From Thermoplasmatales archaeon (GTDB lineage Archaea > Thermoplasmatota > Thermoplasmata > Thermoplasmatales > GCA-001856825), in NCBI GenBank assembly GCA_027343225.1, contig DAHWMK010000005.1:98630-162629 (forward strand): a stretch of DNA of 64,000 nt, read 5' to 3'. The notes under the pieces were generated by a model, which was not told the DNA's origin, ran no database searches, and worked only from the letters and a program-made list of their open reading frames with translations. Positions 4,125-34,157 of the stretch are shown here, piece by piece. The translations under genes were made by a program, and so were the position numbers. Position 1 is the stretch's first letter, and every line of letters starts with the position of its first letter.

Positions 4125-4892
4125 CTACCGCTTTTCCAAGTCGTCAGACCCGAAGAAGATTTTCTGAAGGAATGAATAAATGTCTTCCATTCCCTCATCG
4201 TTTTCTGAAGAAGCAAATACGCTCTCTCCCAGTATGTCGAGACTTTCGCTCCCCCCCAATATTGCCTCTGATAGCTGTACGTTTAAGGAAGCTGACCCCT
4301 CTCTTAGGTCTTTAATCAACTCATTCCTATTCCTATCCCATCTCTCTATCCTATTCCTTTCAGCCGGTTCAAGCAAATCGGCCTTCGATACCACGTTTAG
4401 AAATGGAATGTAAAATCTGGTCATCACGCTCAGTGCAAGAAATCTAGATGAAACATATGACTCAGGATTTTTCATTAGTACCGAATCAAAGAGGTATAGC
4501 ATAGCATTGCTCTCATCTCCAAGGCTCGAGATCAGCTGTGAGGAAGACCCTCTGAATGCAAACAGTTCGAGCTGCCCCGGAGTGTCGATTAGAGTGTAGT
4601 CAGAATCGTACGAGTCCACTAATTCCCTTATCCTATCAGCTTCCTGCACAACAAGGTCAGCTGCAACGATCTGAGCCCCGTTAGGCCCAAGATTATAATT
4701 CTGCATCACGCTTTCAAGCGATATATTCTCCCTAATGTCTATGTCAGGAGTATATGGTAAGAATTCTGCACCTGGATCCAAATTTACAGTTATCGCGTCG
4801 TAGCTAAGGTTCTCCATCCATTCCTTCATCGTATTAACCAGCGTGGATTTTCCAGAACCTGCAGTCCCTACAAAATATACCCTAGGTATCAT
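4125..4892 (-). CDS. GPN-loop GTPase
   Basis: P-loop GTAGSGKST and the eponymous GPN motif (NLGPNGAQIV). I prefer the start at Met15 of the track ORF (MIPRVYFVGTAGSGKS), which overlaps the DP2 stop by 11 nt. Confidence 0.85.
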   Translation of the reverse strand: MIPRVYFVGTAGSGKSTLVNTMKEWMENLSYDAITVNLDPGAEFLPYTPDIDIRENISLESVMQNYNLGPNGAQIVAADLVVQEADRIRELVDSYDSDYTLIDTPGQLELFAFRGSSSQLISSLGDESNAMLYLFDSVLMKNPESYVSSRFLALSVMTRFYIPFLNVVSKADLLEPAERNRIERWDRNRNELIKDLREGSASLNVQLSEAILGGSESLDILGESVFASSENDEGMEDIYSFLQKIFFGSDDLEKR

Positions 4893-7800
4893 CGAAATCC
4901 TCCAGCGTCTTGAAGTTGTTGTCTTTTGCCTCAAATATTGAATTGACCGATTCCCTCATTATCCTTATCCTCTGTCTGACGTAGTTGCTGACCTCGAACT
5001 GATTGGTAATTTTGAAACTGGTTTCCAGGTACTTCGTAATGTTCCCTTTGTGGACTGTGCCCACCAGTTTCGTTCCACACTTTCTGCACTTACCTGTGAT
5101 TGGCAGTCGCCTGTATATTCTGTTGCAACTTGTGCATCTGAATGTTTGGGACCCGAATTTGTTCAAGTTCCCCATTATATCCGGTATGAAATGAGACTTG
5201 AGAATTCGTTCCGCCATGTCTGAAGCGTCAACTGCCCTTATCTTTTGCCCTAGTTTCAGAGTCAACTCCAGTTTTTGCTCCATGCTGGGAATAGTCTTGT
5301 AGCTCGATTCGAGCGTCCCCGTATTTATTGAAGAAGTGTCATCAGAGAACCCACACTTAGGGAACAGCTCCCCCTTCTTCACCTTGGAACCCGCAGTCAC
5401 GACATATTTTGTGATCTCAGATGGATCAGGGAACTTCATGGTCATTTCCAGCAGTTCCAGAGGGTATTCTCCAGTAATGTCGAGATTTAGAGCTTCCTTG
5501 TCTATTTCTGCTGGGTTGATCCTGAGAGATAGTACGAGGGGGGCATCCATAAAACTTCCTCTCGAGTTTGGCAGGTAGTCAAGTGAGAAATTGAGCAGAC
5601 CGTCCAGCAGTAGCATTATAGAATCTTCGTCTCCGTCGCAGTTTCTTCTTTTGGCAGCATGGAAAAAAGGGTGTGCATAACATACACTTCCGTCGGTATA
5701 ACCTATGATCCTTCCTAGTATTCCGCCGGAGGTGTGTGGTGCGAGTCCAATTACAAGAGTACCTATTAGGTCTTCTTTGCTTCTTGCTCTGTAGAAAGGC
5801 TCAAGGCCATAAAATTTTTGCAGGAGATCGTCGACGAAGTTAGAGACTCTTAAGAGGTACTGTCCTGCCTTCTTGCTAGGAACGACGTCTTGCGGATAGA
5901 TCTCAATTATCTGAGAATCATCGGTCAGCTCTGCTCCCGTATGGTCCTTAGAATACCCAAGAGATCTTGCCTTTTCCGGCGTCAACCCAATCTCGCTGAG
6001 TCTTGCGTGGGTCAATGGTACGTCTGACATGTCAAACCTGCAAGTTCCATCCTTGAATGGATAGACAGAATAAGAGGCCCTCAAAATCCCCTTCTCGATA
6101 GGCTCTGGTGTCTTGTGTGTCGATGTGAGCCCCCTTACTCCGTTTACCTTTTTTGGCACCACAACACCTAATTGTTCCACCTTGGTTCTAAGAATCTCAG
6201 ATATGTTGATATCGAATTCCTTGGTCCGGTCAGTCGGATTGGTATGGGAACCGCATTTCTCACAAACATTGCTAAACGTTATGGCTCCGCATCCAGAACA
6301 CTGTCTCACTTGCATCTCGGTACCTTGAAGTTCCTCGTACTGATTCAAGTCCCTCCTATTTTTCTGGACGTTCCCAATGGGAAAAAGAACGTGAACTGGA
6401 GGGTTCATCTTTCTTTCCTCTGCCTTCTCTGGTCTTCCCATTCTTGCACCGATTCTGGTTAGTCCTCTTGGAAGTATGGGGAATCCTGCCAGTGCATTTA
6501 TGGTTCTCATGGCATCGCTACCTGTGACCTTCTTTCTTGATACTACCTTATTGTTTTCATTCCTCATACCCAAGGGAGCTATCAAACTCCGATAATTCTT
6601 AATTCTGATTCTATCAGTAACTTCGAATTCACAAAGGATGTCAGTCAAGAATCTTGTGCTGAAATCAGTCACAGGTAACTCCAGACAGTCGTCTCTTATG
6701 ACAGAGTCGTTTTCGACTATTTCAGAGAACAGTTGAATGTCTTCGACGCTGACATCGTGCCACAGGTAAGTGAAGGAGGGATGAAGTGGAATCCCTAGCG
6801 AGATCGATGCTTCTACTGCCTCTTTTTCTGAATTAACCTCAGGAATTCTGCCAATCGTCCTGACACAGAGTTGTCTCCACCAAGATTCAGTGAACGATCC
6901 CGGAAATAGAACCTTATTGTTCTCAATAAACTCCCCAAACGAAATCATTATTTCTCCTAGATCTACTATTTCCTTAATGTTTTCACGATTCGTTTCATAC
7001 ATCATTTCGTTCTTTAGGTTGACGAGACTCCCAGACTCAAGAAGAACGGTCGGTCCATCAAGATTAGAATTGGCAACAACCGCTCCCGCTTTACCTGGTC
7101 TTTCCATCTTTATTTGCGTCCCAAGAGCTATGAAGTCATCGAGTACCTTCATTGTTACCGGACTAATTGCAACTGCTGCCAGCCCAGTGTTCCTCGACCT
7201 CCCATATCTCAGTCGAAACCCTCCTTTCCTTGAGGGGTACGATAGGGCAGGTCGACCTGCCAGCATTTCCTTGAGGTAGTTTGAATTTGGGAACAGGTTC
7301 TTTTCTTCTTTCTTTTCTGAAGAGAAGGACCATCCTTCCAGTCCAAAAGTACTCACATATTTCTTGAGTTTCGGCCCCTTGAGAATGAGTCCTTCCGCAA
7401 TGACAAGGGCCATTCCTCCGCGAAGTCTGTTTGTCTCGATATCTGGAAGATTCCTGTGTCCAGTTATTTCTGTTTCTTCGGTACCTTCTCCAGTTATGCA
7501 AACTGGTGAACCCTTCACAGCAGTCTCAATCTCCTCGTTTGTTGGGATGTATTGGAGGTGTTGCACTCTTGCGTAGAGTGGTATTTCTTCCTTACATCTC
7601 TCGATTTCCTCGTCGGTGGCAACGTACTTTCCTATCCCAAATTTCCTTCTCAGTAGGTCTCCTACGAAAACGCTAAGAGCCTGAGCTGTTCCTCCAGCGC
7701 TCCTTATAGGCCCTGAGTAATATATTGCAAGATAGCTGTCTCCATTCCTTTTCTTTACCCTGACTCCCGTTATGCCTTCCAGTGGTGCAACAAGTATGCC

Positions 7801-8130
7801 CTCTGTCAGAATAGCAAGTGCGACCCTTATTCCTTTCTCTATTCTGACCTCGTCTGGACCGTCGAAACGATCCGATACCGAAATTGCAGCCTCAATTGCA
7901 ACTCTTTCCCTGTCATATTTCTTAGAGAGTTCCTTTATTATTTCTGATGCTTCAATTCCCGTCAGGGCCTGGACCCGTCCCGCAAGATCCTCTGCTTGTG
8001 GAATCTCCACCTTTGTTTCACAATCTCTGCCTTGCGCCCTGGCCTTCGTGGCAATATCGTACTGAAGGCTTGCTTCGTTCTTCAATCTTAGAAAATAGTT
8101 TTCGAGCGCCTCAGGCATGTTAATACTCAT
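4882..8130 (-). CDS. polC: DNA polymerase D (PolD) large catalytic subunit DP2
   Basis: 1082 aa. Conserved DP2 blocks (LAPHTSGG, RRNCDGDEDS acidic catalytic block), two Cys4 zinc fingers (CSGCGAITFSNVCEKCG and CTSCNRIYRRLPITGKCRKCG), and no intein. Confidence 0.93.
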   Translation of the reverse strand: MSINMPEALENYFLRLKNEASLQYDIATKARAQGRDCETKVEIPQAEDLAGRVQALTGIEASEIIKELSKKYDRERVAIEAAISVSDRFDGPDEVRIEKGIRVALAILTEGILVAPLEGITGVRVKKRNGDSYLAIYYSGPIRSAGGTAQALSVFVGDLLRRKFGIGKYVATDEEIERCKEEIPLYARVQHLQYIPTNEEIETAVKGSPVCITGEGTEETEITGHRNLPDIETNRLRGGMALVIAEGLILKGPKLKKYVSTFGLEGWSFSSEKKEEKNLFPNSNYLKEMLAGRPALSYPSRKGGFRLRYGRSRNTGLAAVAISPVTMKVLDDFIALGTQIKMERPGKAGAVVANSNLDGPTVLLESGSLVNLKNEMMYETNRENIKEIVDLGEIMISFGEFIENNKVLFPGSFTESWWRQLCVRTIGRIPEVNSEKEAVEASISLGIPLHPSFTYLWHDVSVEDIQLFSEIVENDSVIRDDCLELPVTDFSTRFLTDILCEFEVTDRIRIKNYRSLIAPLGMRNENNKVVSRKKVTGSDAMRTINALAGFPILPRGLTRIGARMGRPEKAEERKMNPPVHVLFPIGNVQKNRRDLNQYEELQGTEMQVRQCSGCGAITFSNVCEKCGSHTNPTDRTKEFDINISEILRTKVEQLGVVVPKKVNGVRGLTSTHKTPEPIEKGILRASYSVYPFKDGTCRFDMSDVPLTHARLSEIGLTPEKARSLGYSKDHTGAELTDDSQIIEIYPQDVVPSKKAGQYLLRVSNFVDDLLQKFYGLEPFYRARSKEDLIGTLVIGLAPHTSGGILGRIIGYTDGSVCYAHPFFHAAKRRNCDGDEDSIMLLLDGLLNFSLDYLPNSRGSFMDAPLVLSLRINPAEIDKEALNLDITGEYPLELLEMTMKFPDPSEITKYVVTAGSKVKKGELFPKCGFSDDTSSINTGTLESSYKTIPSMEQKLELTLKLGQKIRAVDASDMAERILKSHFIPDIMGNLNKFGSQTFRCTSCNRIYRRLPITGKCRKCGTKLVGTVHKGNITKYLETSFKITNQFEVSNYVRQRIRIMRESVNSIFEAKDNNFKTLEDFDDT

Positions 8131-8844: not shown

Positions 8845-9774
8845 TTAGGAAAGCGGAATGGATTTCTCAAGAGAAATACCAGTTCCTACGTTAAGCGCCT
8901 GATCACTTACTATGTTGAGTTTACCAAATTCAGTCTCAACAAGATAATTGTGTTTAATCCCCTTTTCTTCATAAATTACTTTCACTTTGATTAGCCCACC
9001 AAATACCACCTTGCTTGGATGGATAGCATATTTTTTATCACCGACATTGTAAATATTGTAACCTAGGATTTTTGCTATATCCTCCGTCTTTGGGCGATTA
9101 AGAATACGGTCCTTTTCACCGTCATCAAGTATGGACCCGTCGTGGAGGATAGCAATGCTGTCTCCCAATATTTCAGCATCCGCAAGATCATGCGTCACAT
9201 AGATAATTGAAACCCCAAACCTCCTTTGAATATCCTTAATGTACCATCTCATGCTGTTCCTGAGGAAGGAGTCTAGGGATGACAGTGGTTCATCCATCAG
9301 GATTAGATCGGGTTCTGTTATCAGTGTTCTGGCAAGCGCAACCAGTTGCTTTTCTCCACCACTGAGTTGAGAAGGGAACTTGTGCAATTGGTTTTCGACT
9401 GAAAGGGTCTCGCTGACTTCATGCACCTTCTTGTTGATTTCATCTACATTTTTAGATCTGATTCTTAGTCCGTATGCAATATTCTCCGCTACGTTCATCG
9501 AGTAGAATAATCCCAGGTCCTGGAAGACGAAACCTATATTCCTTTTCTCGATCTCAAGATCCGTGATGTCTTTTCCATCCTTGATTATGGCGCCTGAGTC
9601 TGGTTTTATGATGCCTGCGATTGAATTGAGGATGCTCGTTTTTCCACTGCCGGACGCGCCAAGGATTACTTTTATCTCTCGTTCCTTTAGGGAGAAACTG
9701 ACATTTTTCAAAATGTCCTCGGAACCTATTTTCTTAGAAATTGCCTGAACTCTAAGTTTGTCCAACCGAACCAC
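8845..9774 (-). CDS. thiQ: ABC transporter ATPase (ThiQ/FbpC-like) with a C-terminal regulatory domain
   Basis: Walker A GASGSGKTS, signature LSGGEKQ, Walker B LILMDEP. Last gene of a 3-gene operon preceded by a TPP riboswitch. 23-nt overlap with the permease gene. Confidence 0.85.
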   Translation of the reverse strand: MVRLDKLRVQAISKKIGSEDILKNVSFSLKEREIKVILGASGSGKTSILNSIAGIIKPDSGAIIKDGKDITDLEIEKRNIGFVFQDLGLFYSMNVAENIAYGLRIRSKNVDEINKKVHEVSETLSVENQLHKFPSQLSGGEKQLVALARTLITEPDLILMDEPLSSLDSFLRNSMRWYIKDIQRRFGVSIIYVTHDLADAEILGDSIAILHDGSILDDGEKDRILNRPKTEDIAKILGYNIYNVGDKKYAIHPSKVVFGGLIKVKVIYEEKGIKHNYLVETEFGKLNIVSDQALNVGTGISLEKSIPLS

Positions 9775-11257
9775 TCTTTCCCAAATGGTTTATGATTAAA
9801 GAGGAAATAAATATTACAATCAAGAAAATCTCAGTCAGATTGTAAGTATCTCTGAGATCCCTAAGATAAAGCAGATTATAAATCCCGATCGTTATTGTCT
9901 CTGTCGACTGCGTATAGACGGTCACTATTGAAGAAAACTCTCCCATCACCGTTATGAACATTAGGGAGAGTATGGTCGACATCTCCCATTTTATCCTGGG
10001 TAGTTGAACTTTGAAAAAAGTTGCGAAGGGGGAGTCACCTAGGATTCTAGAAGAATTTGATTCTGAAGGCATGATTGTTCCGGTCGATTGGATCATCATC
10101 CTAAGATTTAGAGGTATTATTATGGCAGCAAAAATCAGGATGATGAGAATGCTAGTAGGAATGTGTTCCCCATAAATCAGGAAATATGAAAGCGCGAGAG
10201 TAACTGGGGAGAAGATCAACGGGAGAAGGATCAAGAATTGATTCCTGAGAGTTGGGCGATATACGGTAATAATAATCGATATCATAAATGCAATGAACGT
10301 GCTAGCAAAAGAGAAAAGAACTGTGTTACTGATTAAAGCGGAAAATGATATCTGCAGTTTTGAAGTGACGGAATGCAAGTCCAATAGCCATATCGGGTAT
10401 TTCACAAACATTCCAAAAAAAGGAACCGATATGAAAAATATGAAAAGGACTAGACCGACAAGAGCAACCACGTTATAGCGCTTTAGTGGGGGAGGGAGAT
10501 TTGAGTCATCTCTTCTTGATCTGGATCGAATCGTGAGGTATGCATACAGAGGAACTATCAGGATTGCGATTTGAATAAGCCCCAGTAGAGATGCGCCCGA
10601 GAAGGGGACTTGAGAAATGGTGGGAAGGATAGATTTCAGTTCGTATATCATAACCTCCATCGTGGAGTAGGATGGTCCTCCTATAATGAGTGGAAGGCTA
10701 AATCCCTCAAAAGAAAGAATGAATGTGAGTATTGCTCCCAGCATCCCCCCTCGAAGACTGCTCGGTAGGTAGAATTTAGAAATTATCTCTGAGTCCTTTG
10801 CTCCCAGCGTCTTTGCAGAATAGATCTCACGTAAGTTGGCAGAATTACCGGTCGAAAAAGCAAGAACGGAAATCATAGGAGCGTTGTATACTACATTCCC
10901 GTAGATTATTTCCCAAAACCTTGACGAGTATCCAAAAATCGAAATAATGCCAATTGCCATCACTATCCCTGGCATTACATATGTCACCAGCAGCAAGGAG
11001 ATAAAGATGTTTTTCATCTTGCCGTTGTATACTATCAACAGCAGCCCGAATAGAAGACCAACTGAAAGAGATATAATGGTTGATAATGTCGCTTGCATGA
11101 GTGATTGCTCAAGTGATGCCTTCAAAACTTCAATCATTAATCGGTCTAAGGACGAGTGATATGCGTAATATGCAAGATAGAGCAACGGAGCTATTACTAC
11201 GGCAACTGCGTATATGCTTACGAACGCAAGAGGCAGTACTCCTCTTCTAGCCCTCAA
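9752..11257 (-). CDS. thiP: Fused two-domain ABC permease (ThiP/FbpB-like, about 12 TM)
   Basis: 501 aa, a duplicated binding-protein-dependent permease architecture typical of ThiP/FbpB. Overlaps the binding-protein gene by 11 nt. Confidence 0.8.
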   Translation of the reverse strand: MRARRGVLPLAFVSIYAVAVVIAPLLYLAYYAYHSSLDRLMIEVLKASLEQSLMQATLSTIISLSVGLLFGLLLIVYNGKMKNIFISLLLVTYVMPGIVMAIGIISIFGYSSRFWEIIYGNVVYNAPMISVLAFSTGNSANLREIYSAKTLGAKDSEIISKFYLPSSLRGGMLGAILTFILSFEGFSLPLIIGGPSYSTMEVMIYELKSILPTISQVPFSGASLLGLIQIAILIVPLYAYLTIRSRSRRDDSNLPPPLKRYNVVALVGLVLFIFFISVPFFGMFVKYPIWLLDLHSVTSKLQISFSALISNTVLFSFASTFIAFMISIIITVYRPTLRNQFLILLPLIFSPVTLALSYFLIYGEHIPTSILIILIFAAIIIPLNLRMMIQSTGTIMPSESNSSRILGDSPFATFFKVQLPRIKWEMSTILSLMFITVMGEFSSIVTVYTQSTETITIGIYNLLYLRDLRDTYNLTEIFLIVIFISSLIINHLGKSGSVGQT

Positions 11258-12350
11258 TCGAGCTCCACTCTAGTGACCAAGTGCTTATGTTGTTGGCCGC
11301 AACACTCATGTTTAGGTAGAAATTCAAAGGGATTATTGATGAGACTGGAGGGTTTACCGAGTATACATGAGGCAAAATTATGTTTTCATTGGCTGGGTAC
11401 ATCCACTCATTGAGAGGTATAAGATTCTGGACTTTATTTCCTAGAAGCCAATTGACGAATTCTTCATCTATGTTATGATACTTAGAAGAATTGAGAATCC
11501 CAACTCCAAGTACCTGCATCCATGCATAACTTTTTCCGCCGTAATGGAAGGGAGTGGTTCCAATCGGAGACTCATTGAAGTATGCGTTGTAAGCCGGGTC
11601 TGTTGCATATGAAAAGAACATTTGCCTTTGACCATTTTCAAACAAGGTAAAACCGGAACTCCAATCAGAAGTTATCTGGATTCCCTTGCTTGATTCCCAG
11701 AATGTGGTCCAGTTTTCGTGAAGTATCCCGGTATAGAAGGCGATCTGACCAAGCAAGAAATCCTCTCCATTAATGTTCAGGGTGCCCGGGTTCTCAAGTA
11801 TGTATTGATTTGCAATGGTCGAATTGTAGAAATCAGAGAATGAGAGGTTCTGGATGATAGACGTGTTTATTGGTCCAGAAAGGTTGTAGTCCGTTGTCAG
11901 AGGCGAATACTCGTAGGGGATTACGTACCCAGACGACTGTATGAAAGAATAAAGGGTCTTGTTCACGTAAGATGCATTACTCACGTTGAAATGATAGAAA
12001 TAACCACTCTTCGCTGCTAAATAGGAGTCAAGATTGTTGAGTCCAATGACGATATCATAGCCGGTTCCCTTTGTCTCGACAATCTGACCAAACAAGTCGG
12101 TTGATGCATAGGATATCTTGATTTTTACGTGGTGCCAATTCTCAAAATTGTCAATCAGATACTTGAGAGTCTGATTTGGGTTTGCACCAGAATCGAAGAA
12201 GGAACCATAAGTCAGAATATTGATGGTTGGTTCCTGTGATGTCACAATATCCGGATAAGTAAAATATACCAGTGTTCCGGCCAGCACTACTAATCCAATA
12301 ACCACGTATACGACGTAGTTTGTCTTTTTCTTTATTATATCTTCACTCAT
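11247..12350 (-). CDS. thiB: Membrane-anchored substrate-binding protein of the thiamine/iron(III)/polyamine SBP superfamily; probably binds thiamine or a thiamine precursor
   Basis: 367 aa with an N-terminal signal anchor. First gene after the THI-box. The substrate assignment rests mainly on the riboswitch context. Confidence 0.7.
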   Translation of the reverse strand: MSEDIIKKKTNYVVYVVIGLVVLAGTLVYFTYPDIVTSQEPTINILTYGSFFDSGANPNQTLKYLIDNFENWHHVKIKISYASTDLFGQIVETKGTGYDIVIGLNNLDSYLAAKSGYFYHFNVSNASYVNKTLYSFIQSSGYVIPYEYSPLTTDYNLSGPINTSIIQNLSFSDFYNSTIANQYILENPGTLNINGEDFLLGQIAFYTGILHENWTTFWESSKGIQITSDWSSGFTLFENGQRQMFFSYATDPAYNAYFNESPIGTTPFHYGGKSYAWMQVLGVGILNSSKYHNIDEEFVNWLLGNKVQNLIPLNEWMYPANENIILPHVYSVNPPVSSIIPLNFYLNMSVAANNISTWSLEWSSIEG

Positions 12351-12445
12351 TTTTTTCCCTCCGCCAGTATTATCTGGGTCAGGTTCGACGGGTCGATCTC
12401 ATCGATCCTCTCAGCCCGCTTCGGCGAGCTCCCCTGTGATACTGG
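12351..12445 (-). promoter_or_regulatory. TPP (THI-box) riboswitch
   Basis: The reverse-strand RNA reads CACAGGGGAGCUCGCCGAAGCGGGCUGAGAGGAUCGAUGAGAUCGACCCGUCGAACCUGACCCAGAUAAUACUGGCGGAGGGAAAAAAAUG. This matches the conserved blocks GGGGnGC / GCUGAGA / ACCC / GAACCUGA / AUAAU / GCGnAGGGA in the correct order. Compensatory stems are present: P3 AGCUCG/CGGGCU and P5 CCAG/CUGG. Confidence 0.88.
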
Positions 12446-12550
12446 ATTGAAATAGCCTATAAAACTGTTGTTAACCCAATAAGCTAAATGCGGCTCTTGT
12501 GATTGGCCTACAGTCGGATAACATTTTATTATCACATATATTACCGTCAT

Positions 12551-15327: not shown

Positions 15328-17409
15328 GTGGATTCTCTGCATAGACGACTGCATTTAATCATTGTAATCTCGGTTATGCTCTTGTTGATATTGACATCAG
15401 CCGGTACCATCGTCGAACATAGCCATCAAAATGAGTCGACATCCCATGTGAATCTTAGGGTATCACAATCGTACAACGGAGTGTTGGGTCTTTATAATAA
15501 GTCAAGCCAGCAAGTTGACCCGTACAGATCCTATATTTCTGAGCCCGCTCCCATCGGAATAGCCGATTATGGAATAGGAAATCGAGGGTTGCCATACAAT
15601 TATTCCACTTCCTCTTTCATGGGAAATGTCACCATCGAGTCCATCTCCATGTATAGCCCGTCAGTTCATTCATATAACGTGACCTTCCAGCTCAACGTAA
15701 ACCTAGTTTTCTCGTATCGTTCAAACCAATACGACTACTGGATACAGGACGTAGCCTATCTTAATACATCGTCTTTGCAGATAACTTTCATAGACAATAT
15801 ATGGAATCTATCAGCGCCCAACGCAAATATGTACAACTCAACCATATTAGGGAACGGAACGATCGGCAATACAGGAAGTAAATCAGGACCTTCACAGTTT
15901 TATTACGACTTCGCGAACTCTTCTCTACCAGGGAATAACATCTCGCTCACTACCAACTCTTCATTCTTACTGAAGGTAAATACAAACCTAGGGCCTGGGA
16001 ACTCTCCTGAGGTTTCGTTTCTATATAACGACGGGCATGGATGGGTTGTTTACGACAAAGCTGTTTTTTACTTTGCTTCGAAACTGAACCATAATCCCTA
16101 CTTTTATGTGAGTGGGTACAGCTACAACCCAGCAAATACTTACTATGATGCCGAACTCATAATAGGTGGACCTGGAAATTCAAGCCAGAGTGAAGACATC
16201 AGTTCTTCAATACTGCTTATGCTTGAATACTATAATGGAAATAACTACCAGACGATTCAGAATGCCTTCAATTTCGGAGGAGACACCGGTGAGACGGTCT
16301 ACAACGCAATTGGAGGATGGACTTATGGAAGCATCACAGGGAGAGTTGCCGCTTACGTTCAAGGTGGGTCAGGTCCACTTGGCCAACTATACAACTCTAG
16401 TGAACTCTCTTCTCTTAAGATAATCACGAACATATCAAGTGGAGCCTTGTACGTAAAAAGTCTCAACTATACTGGGAAACCGTTAAATGTCACTTCGTTC
16501 GTTGGAGGTATTCTCAACGTGACTCTTTTCCCCGGCAAATACTCCATCGAGATTTACGATTTTGCTACTGGAGAGGTTAAGAATTATGGAAGCGTCACAC
16601 TTTCAGCAGGTAAAGAAACTTTACTACCTAATAGTACGTACGAAGTTAGTTTCCAAGAAAATGGCCTTCCAGCAGGAGCATCGTGGTATCTTAATGTATC
16701 TGGAATAAATTCTGGTTCGATACTTACTGATCAATACTCCGTCTATCTCCACAATGGCACTTACAATTTTACGACATTCAGCACGGATAAAGATTATCGA
16801 GATCTTAATGAATCAGGAGTAATTGTGGTCAACGGTACTTCACTTCAGGTAGAGATTAGATTTGTACCGTATCTTTTCAACATTTCATTCGTGGAGTCTG
16901 GTCTTCCCAGTGGTACAATGTGGTCAGTATCCCTTAACGGAAAAGGAACTGTAAATTCCACTAATGATGTGATCAATTTTTCAGTCCCCAACGGGACTTA
17001 TAATTTTGTAATTCCAAGGACCGGTAACTATGCTCTCAACTCGTCAACTGGCACTGTCATCGTAAATGGAACAAATATAACCAAACTTGAAGTATTCCAA
17101 ATACTGGATGGCTACCTGACTGGAAAAATCAGGCCTTCTACCGCAGTGATTCTAGTCAATGGGACTTCTTACAATGCCATAAATGGCAAGTACAACATTT
17201 CCCTAAAACCAGGTAACTATTCTGTAAAATTTATCGCTCCAGGATACTTGAATTACACCACAAACGTAACAGTGACGTCTCTTAACTCTACGAATCTTAA
17301 GACCATCGAGCTGATTCAAAAATTCGATTACACATTCTTGCTCATAATCCCGCTAATAATATTCCTTGTTTTGGGAGCTTTAGTGATGCGGCATAGAAAA
17401 AAAAGGTGA
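15328..17409 (+). CDS. Thermopsin-family (peptidase A5) secreted acid protease with C-terminal repeat modules and a membrane anchor
   Basis: 693 aa. Signal anchor, thermopsin core blocks (EPAPIGIADYG, YWIQDVAYL, ELIIGGPG), very many N-x-S/T sequons, two roughly 75-aa repeats (F-x-E-[NS]-GLP-x-G-x-x-W ... NGTYNF ... VNGT), a carboxypeptidase-regulatory-like domain, and a C-terminal TM plus RHRKKR. GTG start. Confidence 0.82.
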   Translation: MDSLHRRLHLIIVISVMLLLILTSAGTIVEHSHQNESTSHVNLRVSQSYNGVLGLYNKSSQQVDPYRSYISEPAPIGIADYGIGNRGLPYNYSTSSFMGNVTIESISMYSPSVHSYNVTFQLNVNLVFSYRSNQYDYWIQDVAYLNTSSLQITFIDNIWNLSAPNANMYNSTILGNGTIGNTGSKSGPSQFYYDFANSSLPGNNISLTTNSSFLLKVNTNLGPGNSPEVSFLYNDGHGWVVYDKAVFYFASKLNHNPYFYVSGYSYNPANTYYDAELIIGGPGNSSQSEDISSSILLMLEYYNGNNYQTIQNAFNFGGDTGETVYNAIGGWTYGSITGRVAAYVQGGSGPLGQLYNSSELSSLKIITNISSGALYVKSLNYTGKPLNVTSFVGGILNVTLFPGKYSIEIYDFATGEVKNYGSVTLSAGKETLLPNSTYEVSFQENGLPAGASWYLNVSGINSGSILTDQYSVYLHNGTYNFTTFSTDKDYRDLNESGVIVVNGTSLQVEIRFVPYLFNISFVESGLPSGTMWSVSLNGKGTVNSTNDVINFSVPNGTYNFVIPRTGNYALNSSTGTVIVNGTNITKLEVFQILDGYLTGKIRPSTAVILVNGTSYNAINGKYNISLKPGNYSVKFIAPGYLNYTTNVTVTSLNSTNLKTIELIQKFDYTFLLIIPLIIFLVLGALVMRHRKKR

Positions 17410-34055: not shown

Positions 34056-34157
34056 TCCCGGCTGCCGGATTTGAACCAGCGACCTGTGGATGGCGGCGGT
34101 TGCGCCACAGCGCTATCCCTCTACAGTCCACCGCTCTACCAACTGAGCTAAGCCGGG
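34056..34157 (-). tRNA. tRNA-Tyr (GUA) with a 29-nt intron at the canonical 37/38 position; CCA not encoded
   Basis: Hand-folded cloverleaf. Acceptor CCCGGCU/AGCCGGG with the archaeal Tyr identity pair C1-G72, discriminator A73, D stem GCUC/GAGC, anticodon stem GUGGA/UCCAC, loop CUGUAG|intron|A, T arm GCUGG-UUCAAAU-CCGGC. A TATA-like AAAAATATTTTT lies about 21-33 nt upstream. Confidence 0.9.

Follow-up and report, generated by a model that had tools for sequence, protein, structure and literature searches.

A compact TPP riboswitch upstream of a thiamine-type ABC importer operon in a Thermoplasmatales archaeon, with a proposed Shine-Dalgarno sequence inside its aptamer

The window studied here, by which we mean the whole 64-kb stretch of DNA that was analysed (positions 98,630 to 162,629 of contig DAHWMK010000005.1, assigned to a Thermoplasmatales archaeon; all coordinates below are those of the window), carries on its minus strand a three-gene operon resembling thiB-thiP-thiQ and, immediately upstream of it, a thiamine pyrophosphate (TPP) aptamer. 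The gene guaB, encoding IMP dehydrogenase, lies divergently from the operon on the plus strand. A comparison of the window with all 4227 Rfam families by cmscan gave three matches above gathering score, two of them being tRNAs and the third the TPP family RF00059. The latter, at 12445..12339 (-), reaches 57.2 bits (E 1.5e-8), the gathering score being 54.3, and spans model positions 1-105 of 105, so that the Rfam test proposed in an earlier note on this DNA is passed. We consider it quite probable that the segment 12435..12356 (-) is a genuine TPP-sensing riboswitch, which makes up essentially the whole 5' untranslated region (UTR) of the thiB-thiP-thiQ-like operon and works as an OFF switch by occluding the Shine-Dalgarno (SD) sequence.

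The first gene of the operon (11247..12350, -) encodes a thiB-like substrate-binding protein (SBP) of 367 aa with an N-terminal membrane anchor and a match to PF01547. Its best NCBIfam match is TIGR01254, the thiamine SBP subfamily, with 91.3 bits, that is, 2.1 bits under the cut-off of 93.4. When a profile of 30 homologues of the binding protein was compared with the PDB, the best match was E. coli TbpA (2QRY, E 1.6e-35), covering profile residues 39-370 and thereby the whole mature protein, followed by an iron-binding protein at 3.8e-9. The TbpA match supports, independently of the riboswitch, the thiamine-type substrate that the earlier note had assigned to the importer. The homologues come only from Thermoplasmata/Thermoplasmatales metagenome-assembled genomes, in which several are already labelled as thiamine SBP.

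The second gene (9752..11257, -) overlaps thiB by 11 nt and encodes a thiP-like permease of 501 aa with PF00528 at residues 67-243. The two halves of this protein match single-domain NCBIfam models (PotC at residues 47-209 and ModB at residues 304-493), and its alignment with the thiP model TIGR01253 is full-length yet weak (residues 43-484, 31.6 bits). The third gene, in the thiQ position (8845..9774, -), overlaps the permease gene by 23 nt and encodes an ATP-binding cassette (ABC) ATPase, with 118.9 bits for PF00005, which is generic among ABC ATPase families. Equivalog cut-offs are missed throughout the operon (thiB 51.9 against 317 bits, thiP 31.6 against 395, ThiQ 150.9 against 298). A TbpA/ThiB-homologous binding protein is nevertheless found in one operon with a two-domain permease and an ATPase, and the assignment of the three genes to a putative ThiB-ThiP-ThiQ-like thiamine ABC importer is supported. 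The presence of a TbpA homologue downstream also places the aptamer where RF00059 elements are found, upstream of genes of thiamine biosynthesis or transport.

Scanning of one genome per species provided 80 loci encoding relatives of the binding protein, 79 of which are titled Thermoplasmata, Thermoplasmatota, Methanobacteriota or uncultured archaeon; the only exception is a 2.7-kb contig with the label 'bacterium'. Most of the loci preserve the order SBP-permease-ATPase, the permease being found in 70/80 and the ATPase downstream in 71/80. In the close clade, the divergent arrangement of guaB, thiB-thiP-thiQ and rnhB is kept in 22-23 of 24 loci. RF00059 scored above threshold in 15 of the 16 related loci that were scanned (54.7-70.5 bits), always on the coding strand and upstream of the SBP gene. 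A strict aptamer motif is present in 23/24 close loci, and a core regular expression detected the aptamer in 61/80 loci as well as in the window. Two designs are found among these elements. Type A is formed by the window and the 24 loci with SBP identity of at least 55% (L001-L024, of which L012 ends 26 nt upstream of the ATG); here the aptamer measures 78-82 nt and always ends in GCGGAGGGA, with the ATG 4-5 nt further on. Type B corresponds to SBP identities of 32-42%.

The aptamer core of the window consists of P2, P3, J3-2, P3a, J2-4, P4 and P5 and extends over 80 nt (12356..12435, -). The minus strand at 12351..12445 is identical to the letters quoted in the earlier note, and every block listed there was confirmed by coordinate, namely GGGGAGC, the P3 hairpin GCUCGCCGAAGCGGGC, CUGAGA, the GAUC/GAUC hairpin, ACCC, AACCUGA, the P5 strands CCAG/CUGG and GCGGAGGGA. 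The same note had called the riboswitch complete, which is correct for P2-P5 and fails for P1, since the Rfam alignment flags all five P1 pairs as non-canonical, together with one P4 pair.

Pairs were counted separately in an alignment of the close clade (A2) and in one of the distant clade (A4); a MAFFT alignment of both groups (A3) misregistered the distant one in P3a and P2 and was left out of the counts. Across 21 aligned relatives, 61 columns of the aptamer are invariant, and P2-P5 pairing amounts to 84.5-100% in 21 aligned type A sequences. Both the pyrimidine-sensor arm and the pyrophosphate-sensor arm (P4, P5, ACCUGA, GCG) of RF00059 are present. The GGG/CCC pairs of P2 are invariant in 21/21 sequences, the outer pair being variable. 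The P3 hairpin, GCUCG-CCGAAG-CGGGC (12414..12429, -), is paired in 100% of cells and shows compensatory changes in the 21 sequences, where two pairs are altered on both sides (GC to AU/UA and CG to UA). The pyrimidine-sensing junction J3-2, CUGAGA (12409..12414, -), is invariant in 21 close and 25 distant relatives; its role in the recognition of hydroxymethylpyrimidine comes from the published thiM and thiC structures. The extra hairpin P3a, GAUC-GAUGA-GAUC (12395..12407, -), corresponds to an optional stem within the Rfam model. Its stem is invariant in the close clade, and in the distant relatives it has another sequence and is still paired, with four pairs changed on both sides.

The pyrophosphate-sensor arm (12358..12383, -) is built from P4 (CCU/AGG, with an outer G.G mismatch) and P5 (CCAG/CUGG, with the loop AUAAUA). 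Three of the four P4 pairs are kept in 21/21 sequences, and the pair adjoining J5-4 is G.G in all of them; the P5 pairs are likewise kept in 21/21 and are invariant in type A. Between the two clades, P3a and P5 covary (GAUC/GAUC versus GGCAGC/GCUGCC, and CCAG/CUGG versus CCGG/CCGG, respectively). Taken together, and as judged from sequence comparison, the element belongs to the TPP aptamer family, holds a conserved position before the orthologous operon and has its helices P2-P5 supported.

What the riboswitch of the window seems to lack is the usual closing stem, P1: a helix closing the three-way junction, as expected for RF00059, was not found in the window. In the type A alignment, P1 in the Rfam register is paired in 47% of cells, compared with 32-50% in slid controls. 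When the 12 nt upstream of the aptamer were paired with the 22 nt downstream of it, the best duplex equalled that of shuffled flanks (mean z -0.07 over 19 main-clade loci). Neither P1 in the Rfam register nor any other pairing of the 5' and 3' flanks exceeds chance level in the main clade, and both were rejected. We also rejected a 7-bp pairing of CCAGUAU (12441-12447, -) with AUACUGG of the P5 loop and 3' strand, which is perfectly complementary and dominates the fold once a longer leader is assumed, but relatives do not share it and the predicted transcription start site (TSS) is further downstream.

This prediction comes from a promoter profile of 20 type A loci aligned on the first aptamer base (+1). 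An A-rich element resembling a transcription factor B recognition element (BRE), AACAA (12468..12472, -), stands at -37..-33, with 1.7 bits for the A at -34; a TATA box, TTTTATA (12458..12464, -), stands at -29..-23, with 1.7-2.0 bits per position; and a promoter-proximal AT (12446..12447, -) stands at -12/-11, with 1.5-1.7 bits. Upstream conservation is confined to these and to a fourth place, the initiator taC at -3..-1, the columns between them holding 0.1-0.5 bits. In this order they would correspond to the canonical archaeal promoter layout of BRE/TATA, promoter-proximal element and initiator. The first T of TTTATA precedes the aptamer by 28 nt in 19/20 main-clade loci and by 29 nt in L013, and the distance stays constant while the guaB-thiB spacer ranges from ~200 to ~1000 nt.

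Since these conserved promoter elements stand at fixed distances, we predict that the mRNA starts at 12435 (-), at the A that follows the conserved C of taC and is itself the first base of the aptamer, giving a UTR of 85 nt that would consist of the aptamer and five further bases. Some apparently leaderless genes of the window have TATA-like boxes at -26 to -29 from their ATG, in weak agreement with this prediction; clear cases number only a handful. Transcription from 12435 would open with the 5' strand of P2 and leave P1 without a 5' strand. Both the absence of P1 and the predicted start at the 5' edge of the aptamer had been overlooked in the earlier note.

The flanks of the aptamer also bear on the alternative that the element is a conventional riboswitch with a TSS further upstream, in which a weak or irregular P1 encloses the AUG and, when stabilised by TPP, masks the start codon as well as the SD sequence. 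The leader UCAC (12436-12439) could for instance pair with GUGA of codons 2-3 (12342-12345). Such a pairing is possible in the window, several relatives permit similar ones of 3-5 bp by eye and L003 shows an apparent UUAC/GUAA covariation; GUGA, however, derives from conserved Ser-Glu/Asp codons. Loci L023 and L024, from a sister subclade, form a pairing of 6-7 bp with codons 2-4 (z -3.1 and -1.9; E -7.7 kcal/mol), whereas the best flank duplex across the main clade is, as described above, indistinguishable from shuffles. A TATA-like box occurs ~10 nt further upstream in 3/4 sister-subclade loci, but the C at -1 and the A at +1 are what an initiator would show, and a TATA box fixed at -29..-23 would leave the bases ahead of the aptamer untranscribed. 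On balance, we regard a conventional, P1-bearing riboswitch as unlikely.

If the RNA starts at the aptamer, the signals for translation stand at its other end. The AUG of the binding-protein gene (12348..12350, -) is located 5 nt past the last aptamer base, and the only SD-like element, GGAGG (12362..12358, -), is formed by the G of J5-4 and the 3' strand of P4. The earlier note had rightly pointed to this motif just before the AUG, although the gap between them is 7 nt and not 8. In 24/24 clade loci GCGGAGGGA is invariant and the aptamer is separated from the ATG by 4-5 nt; the Rfam consensus has a U at the second G of GGAGG. Several other long open reading frames (ORFs) of the window carry GGAGG, AGGUG or GGUGA 4-7 nt ahead of their ATG, and on this account the host employs SD sequences for some of its genes. 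The UTR contains no run of four or more U, and hence no oligo-U terminator signal, nor is there a terminator-like hairpin between aptamer and AUG. With the AUG only 5 nt beyond the aptamer, the window is of type A and leaves no room for a separate platform.

The published structures of thiM and thiC show the pyrophosphate bound through Mg2+ by J5-4 and J4-5. In a nearest-neighbour model of the ligand-free ensemble, opening of GGAGG costs 3.4 kcal/mol at 37 C and 2.7 kcal/mol at 45 C, and the AUG is at least 90% unpaired. We propose an RNA that opens with the 5' strand of P2 and carries its sole ribosome-binding signal, GGAGG, in the pyrophosphate-sensor arm. Without TPP, this arm would be weak and the AUG unpaired, allowing the small ribosomal subunit to bind and the importer to be made. 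Binding of TPP and Mg2+ would clamp the P2/P3 and P4/P5 arms together and lock the SD sequence inside the folded aptamer. Initiation at thiB would then drop, as would that at the overlapping genes thiP and thiQ, whose translation is probably coupled to it. The aptamer would thus double as expression platform in a translational OFF switch. SD occlusion, as the earlier note had put forward, is supported by the AUG lying 5 nt past the aptamer and by the invariance of GGAGG in the clade, and we infer that a TPP-dependent form of it is likely the most economical mechanism.

Several observations weigh against this proposal. The RF00059 match of the window exceeds its threshold by only 2.9 bits, a small margin that is due mainly to the missing P1. 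The predicted minimum free energy structure, in which the 3' strand of P2 pairs elsewhere, is more stable by 7.5 kcal/mol than the secondary structure competent for ligand binding. P4-P5 is already paired in the ligand-free state, 4/5 SD bases being 85-100% in their bound-form state. GGAGG in P4 is shared by three distant loci that have a separate platform (L031, L034 and L056), so that a G at that P4 position is by itself no proof of SD function. Moreover, the TSS is a prediction from sequence. A search for RNA runs with the window sequence returned DNA metagenomes, plus RNA runs sharing the study, and none of the metatranscriptome contigs of that same study overlaps the UTR of the window. 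For the I-plasma-like locus L005 (4102-5600), contigs from low-depth acid-mine metatranscriptomes match the thiB/thiP coding sequence only, beginning ~100 nt inside thiB, so that the UTR is uncovered; since they match thiB and thiP, the orthologous operon is nonetheless transcribed in situ.

A real aptamer could also act on transcription elongation, termination or mRNA stability, for example through access of a 5'-to-3' exonuclease. If the TSS is correct, P2 is built on the first four bases of the transcript and the ligand would alter the state of the 5' end, yet the gap of just 5 nt before the AUG is, as stated, devoid of an oligo-U tract or a terminator-like hairpin. Nor can a mechanism be presumed from precedent, the sole natural archaeal riboswitch characterised experimentally as of 2021 being the fluoride riboswitch (PMC8241225). 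An invariant GGAGG at SD distance and a fixed gap of 4-5 nt are nevertheless expected from translational control and unneeded for stability, and we hold a non-translational mode of action to be highly improbable. That the ORF of 67 aa at 12347..12550 (-), which overlies riboswitch and promoter, is instead a real small protein with an incidental RNA similarity has a negligible probability, and we reject it as a gene in agreement with the earlier note: an ATG-initiated open frame of 67 codons does exist on the same strand, but it has no match in Pfam or NCBIfam, of 23 relatives 8 do not have it, many others offer no start codon for it and the rest show 27-60 aa, with 31 aa in the closest one (91%-identical), its start would fall within the promoter, ahead of the predicted TSS, and conservation is even over codon positions inside the aptamer and collapses outside.

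The type B relatives are organised differently. A conserved GCU before the aptamer can pair with an AGC just after it, forming a short P1 that is seen in many loci. The 3' strand of P4 reads GCG[A/C]AGG, with no GGAGG, in 40/43 loci whose ATG lies 36-50 nt downstream, and in 25 aligned loci the platform of 36-50 nt contains a GGCAGGAG...AUGGAUCCUGC hairpin enclosing both SD and AUG. RNAalifold pairs the P1/P2 5' strand GCUAGGGG with CUCUGGC of the platform, one pair being changed on both sides in 8/25. This suggests that GCUAGGGG-CUCUGGC acts as an anti-aptamer pairing in type B, although the two-sided change follows GC content and could simply reflect phylogeny. Loci L026-L079 (for example L041:3722-3874 and L047:3724-3880) show the type B design as a GCAGGA/UCCUGC hairpin over SD and AUG. 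A further arrangement is observed in L023 (3899-4020), L024 and the metagenome locus L185, in which GGUCCUUU before the aptamer pairs with AAAGGAU of codons 2-4, so that P1 loops out the AUG.

Metagenomes were scanned with the 3' half of the aptamer including GCGGAGGGA as sole criterion, which yielded at least 120 contigs from sediments, soils and wetlands (L081-L200). Among the matches listed, a start codon opening a long ORF is found within 10 nt of the aptamer in 88/120. The genes behind these compact aptamers encode ThiT/YuaJ, ThiW, thiamine pyrophosphokinase (TPK), the S component of energy-coupling factor transporters or a MinD/ParA-like ATPase; TPK-type contigs have ~70% GC, and a first long ORF at a distance of at least 50 nt can encode an NCS1 permease. 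Flank complementarity in the same set is at chance, with a mean z of 0.02 over 81 loci and a few exceptions. Contigs L097, L082, L084 and L083 are examples of the compact layout. As at least 88 environmental contigs have a close start codon, the SD-in-P4 layout appears widespread and not special to the clade of the window. In this regard, L116 and L120 also encode a methenyl-H4MPT cyclohydrolase (408 bits) or a ThiDN-type fusion (629 bits), and these archaea-typical genes hint that the compact class occurs in archaea beyond that clade. In six contigs (L110, L114, L136, L159, L180 and L191), the aptamer stands 5-7 nt before a gene for a MinD/ParA-like P-loop ATPase (AAA_31/CbiA/ParA) with no obvious link to thiamine.

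Part of what is described here is known: both the lineage and the kind of gene behind this real TPP riboswitch are as expected, and annotation based on Rfam would in any case detect it. What is added here is its architecture, with P1 apparently absent, the promoter adjoining the aptamer and the SD sequence within the pyrophosphate-sensor arm, a minimal layout which is possibly undescribed; a phrase search of the literature for TPP riboswitches lacking P1 gave no relevant result. We see about an even chance that it represents a natural minimal TPP riboswitch, starting at P2 and having neither P1 nor platform, in which ligand and ribosome compete for the same bases. If so, P1 would be dispensable for TPP sensing in vivo, and the compact layout would constitute a widespread, so far uncharacterised subclass and offer a first tractable model of riboswitch mechanism in archaea. 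With an aptamer of 80 nt that appears to function without P1 and holds the SD sequence in its pyrophosphate-sensor arm, competition between ligand and 30S subunit could be studied in a very simple setting. The operon family provides a natural comparison in this respect, between a short P1 with an SD/AUG hairpin in the distant relatives and a P1 formed with codons 2-4 in two sister-subclade members. For annotation, a false gene of 67 aa is removed, the substrate class of a generic ABC operon is named and a predicted transcript start is fixed for it. Our findings point to thiamine scavenging by acid-mine Thermoplasmata under the control of RNA rather than protein.

The surroundings of the operon are archaeal, as indicated by the DNA polymerase II large subunit (4882-8130), RNase HII, an intron-bearing tRNA and a GC content of ~43%, and the DNA runs that contain the window sequence are mine-drainage and sediment metagenomes. 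The tRNA gene (34056-34157, -; 60.2 bits) has a 32-nt insertion at the anticodon loop, which is an archaeal intron. For guaB, the ORF list gives a start at TTG 12503, and the Pfam IMPDH match begins only at residue 28 of that ORF; the start is likely ATG 12551. A TTTTATTA box located 27 nt before ATG 12551 suggests a guaB mRNA that is leaderless or near-leaderless from 12551. At 15328-17409 (+), an ORF of 693 aa has hydrophobic segments at its N and C termini and very many N-x-S/T sequons, and its product looks like a glycosylated surface protein.

Archaeal THI elements reportedly go back to Rodionov et al. 2002. TPP and fluoride riboswitches are the commonest archaeal classes, and archaea use riboswitches sparingly (PMC5473149); the rarity stated in the earlier note agrees with this survey by McCown et al. 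(2017) and with a preprint on acid mine drainage (AMD) communities (10.1101/538918). The latter reports TPP elements upstream of multi-transmembrane proteins in Thermoplasma and Ferroplasma, and TPP elements expressed together with the downstream transporter in the AMD A-, E-, G- and I-plasma. The element of the window belongs to the same archaeal lineage as these Thermoplasmatales riboswitches, the one where archaeal TPP riboswitches were first described and seen expressed, but precedes an ABC binding-protein operon. In metagenomes, THI elements that precede a transporter gene are most often followed by thiB (PMC2211319). The operon itself is similar to E. coli ThiBPQ (TbpA-ThiP-ThiQ) in having a single permease of ~500 aa followed by the ATPase, in the same order, and differs from it in the N-terminal membrane anchor of the binding protein and in scores below the equivalog cut-offs.

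With the THI elements of RF00059 the riboswitch shares P2-P3 with CUGAGA, P4-P5 with AACCUGA and GCG, and the kind of gene regulated. In contrast to typical members, it appears to have no P1, its predicted TSS coincides with the first aptamer base, and a U-to-G change in P4 creates both GGAGG and the G.G mismatch. Like E. coli thiM, it is expected to be an OFF switch acting through SD accessibility. The SD sequence of thiM follows the aptamer and is part of a distinct platform that pairs in a P1-dependent manner, whereas in the window both platform and P1 seem to be missing and the SD sequence belongs to the aptamer; the type B Thermoplasmata relatives, with their separate platform, are nearer to the thiM logic. 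The concept of an aptamer that sequesters the SD sequence directly, without a platform, is shared with SAM-II, SAM-III/SMK box, preQ1-II and type III preQ1-I riboswitches. For type III preQ1-I, direct metabolite sensing by the SD sequence is reported (PMC10622847). These SAM and preQ1 classes have folds and ligands unrelated to those of the TPP element described here, and the likeness among them is one of function rather than of family.

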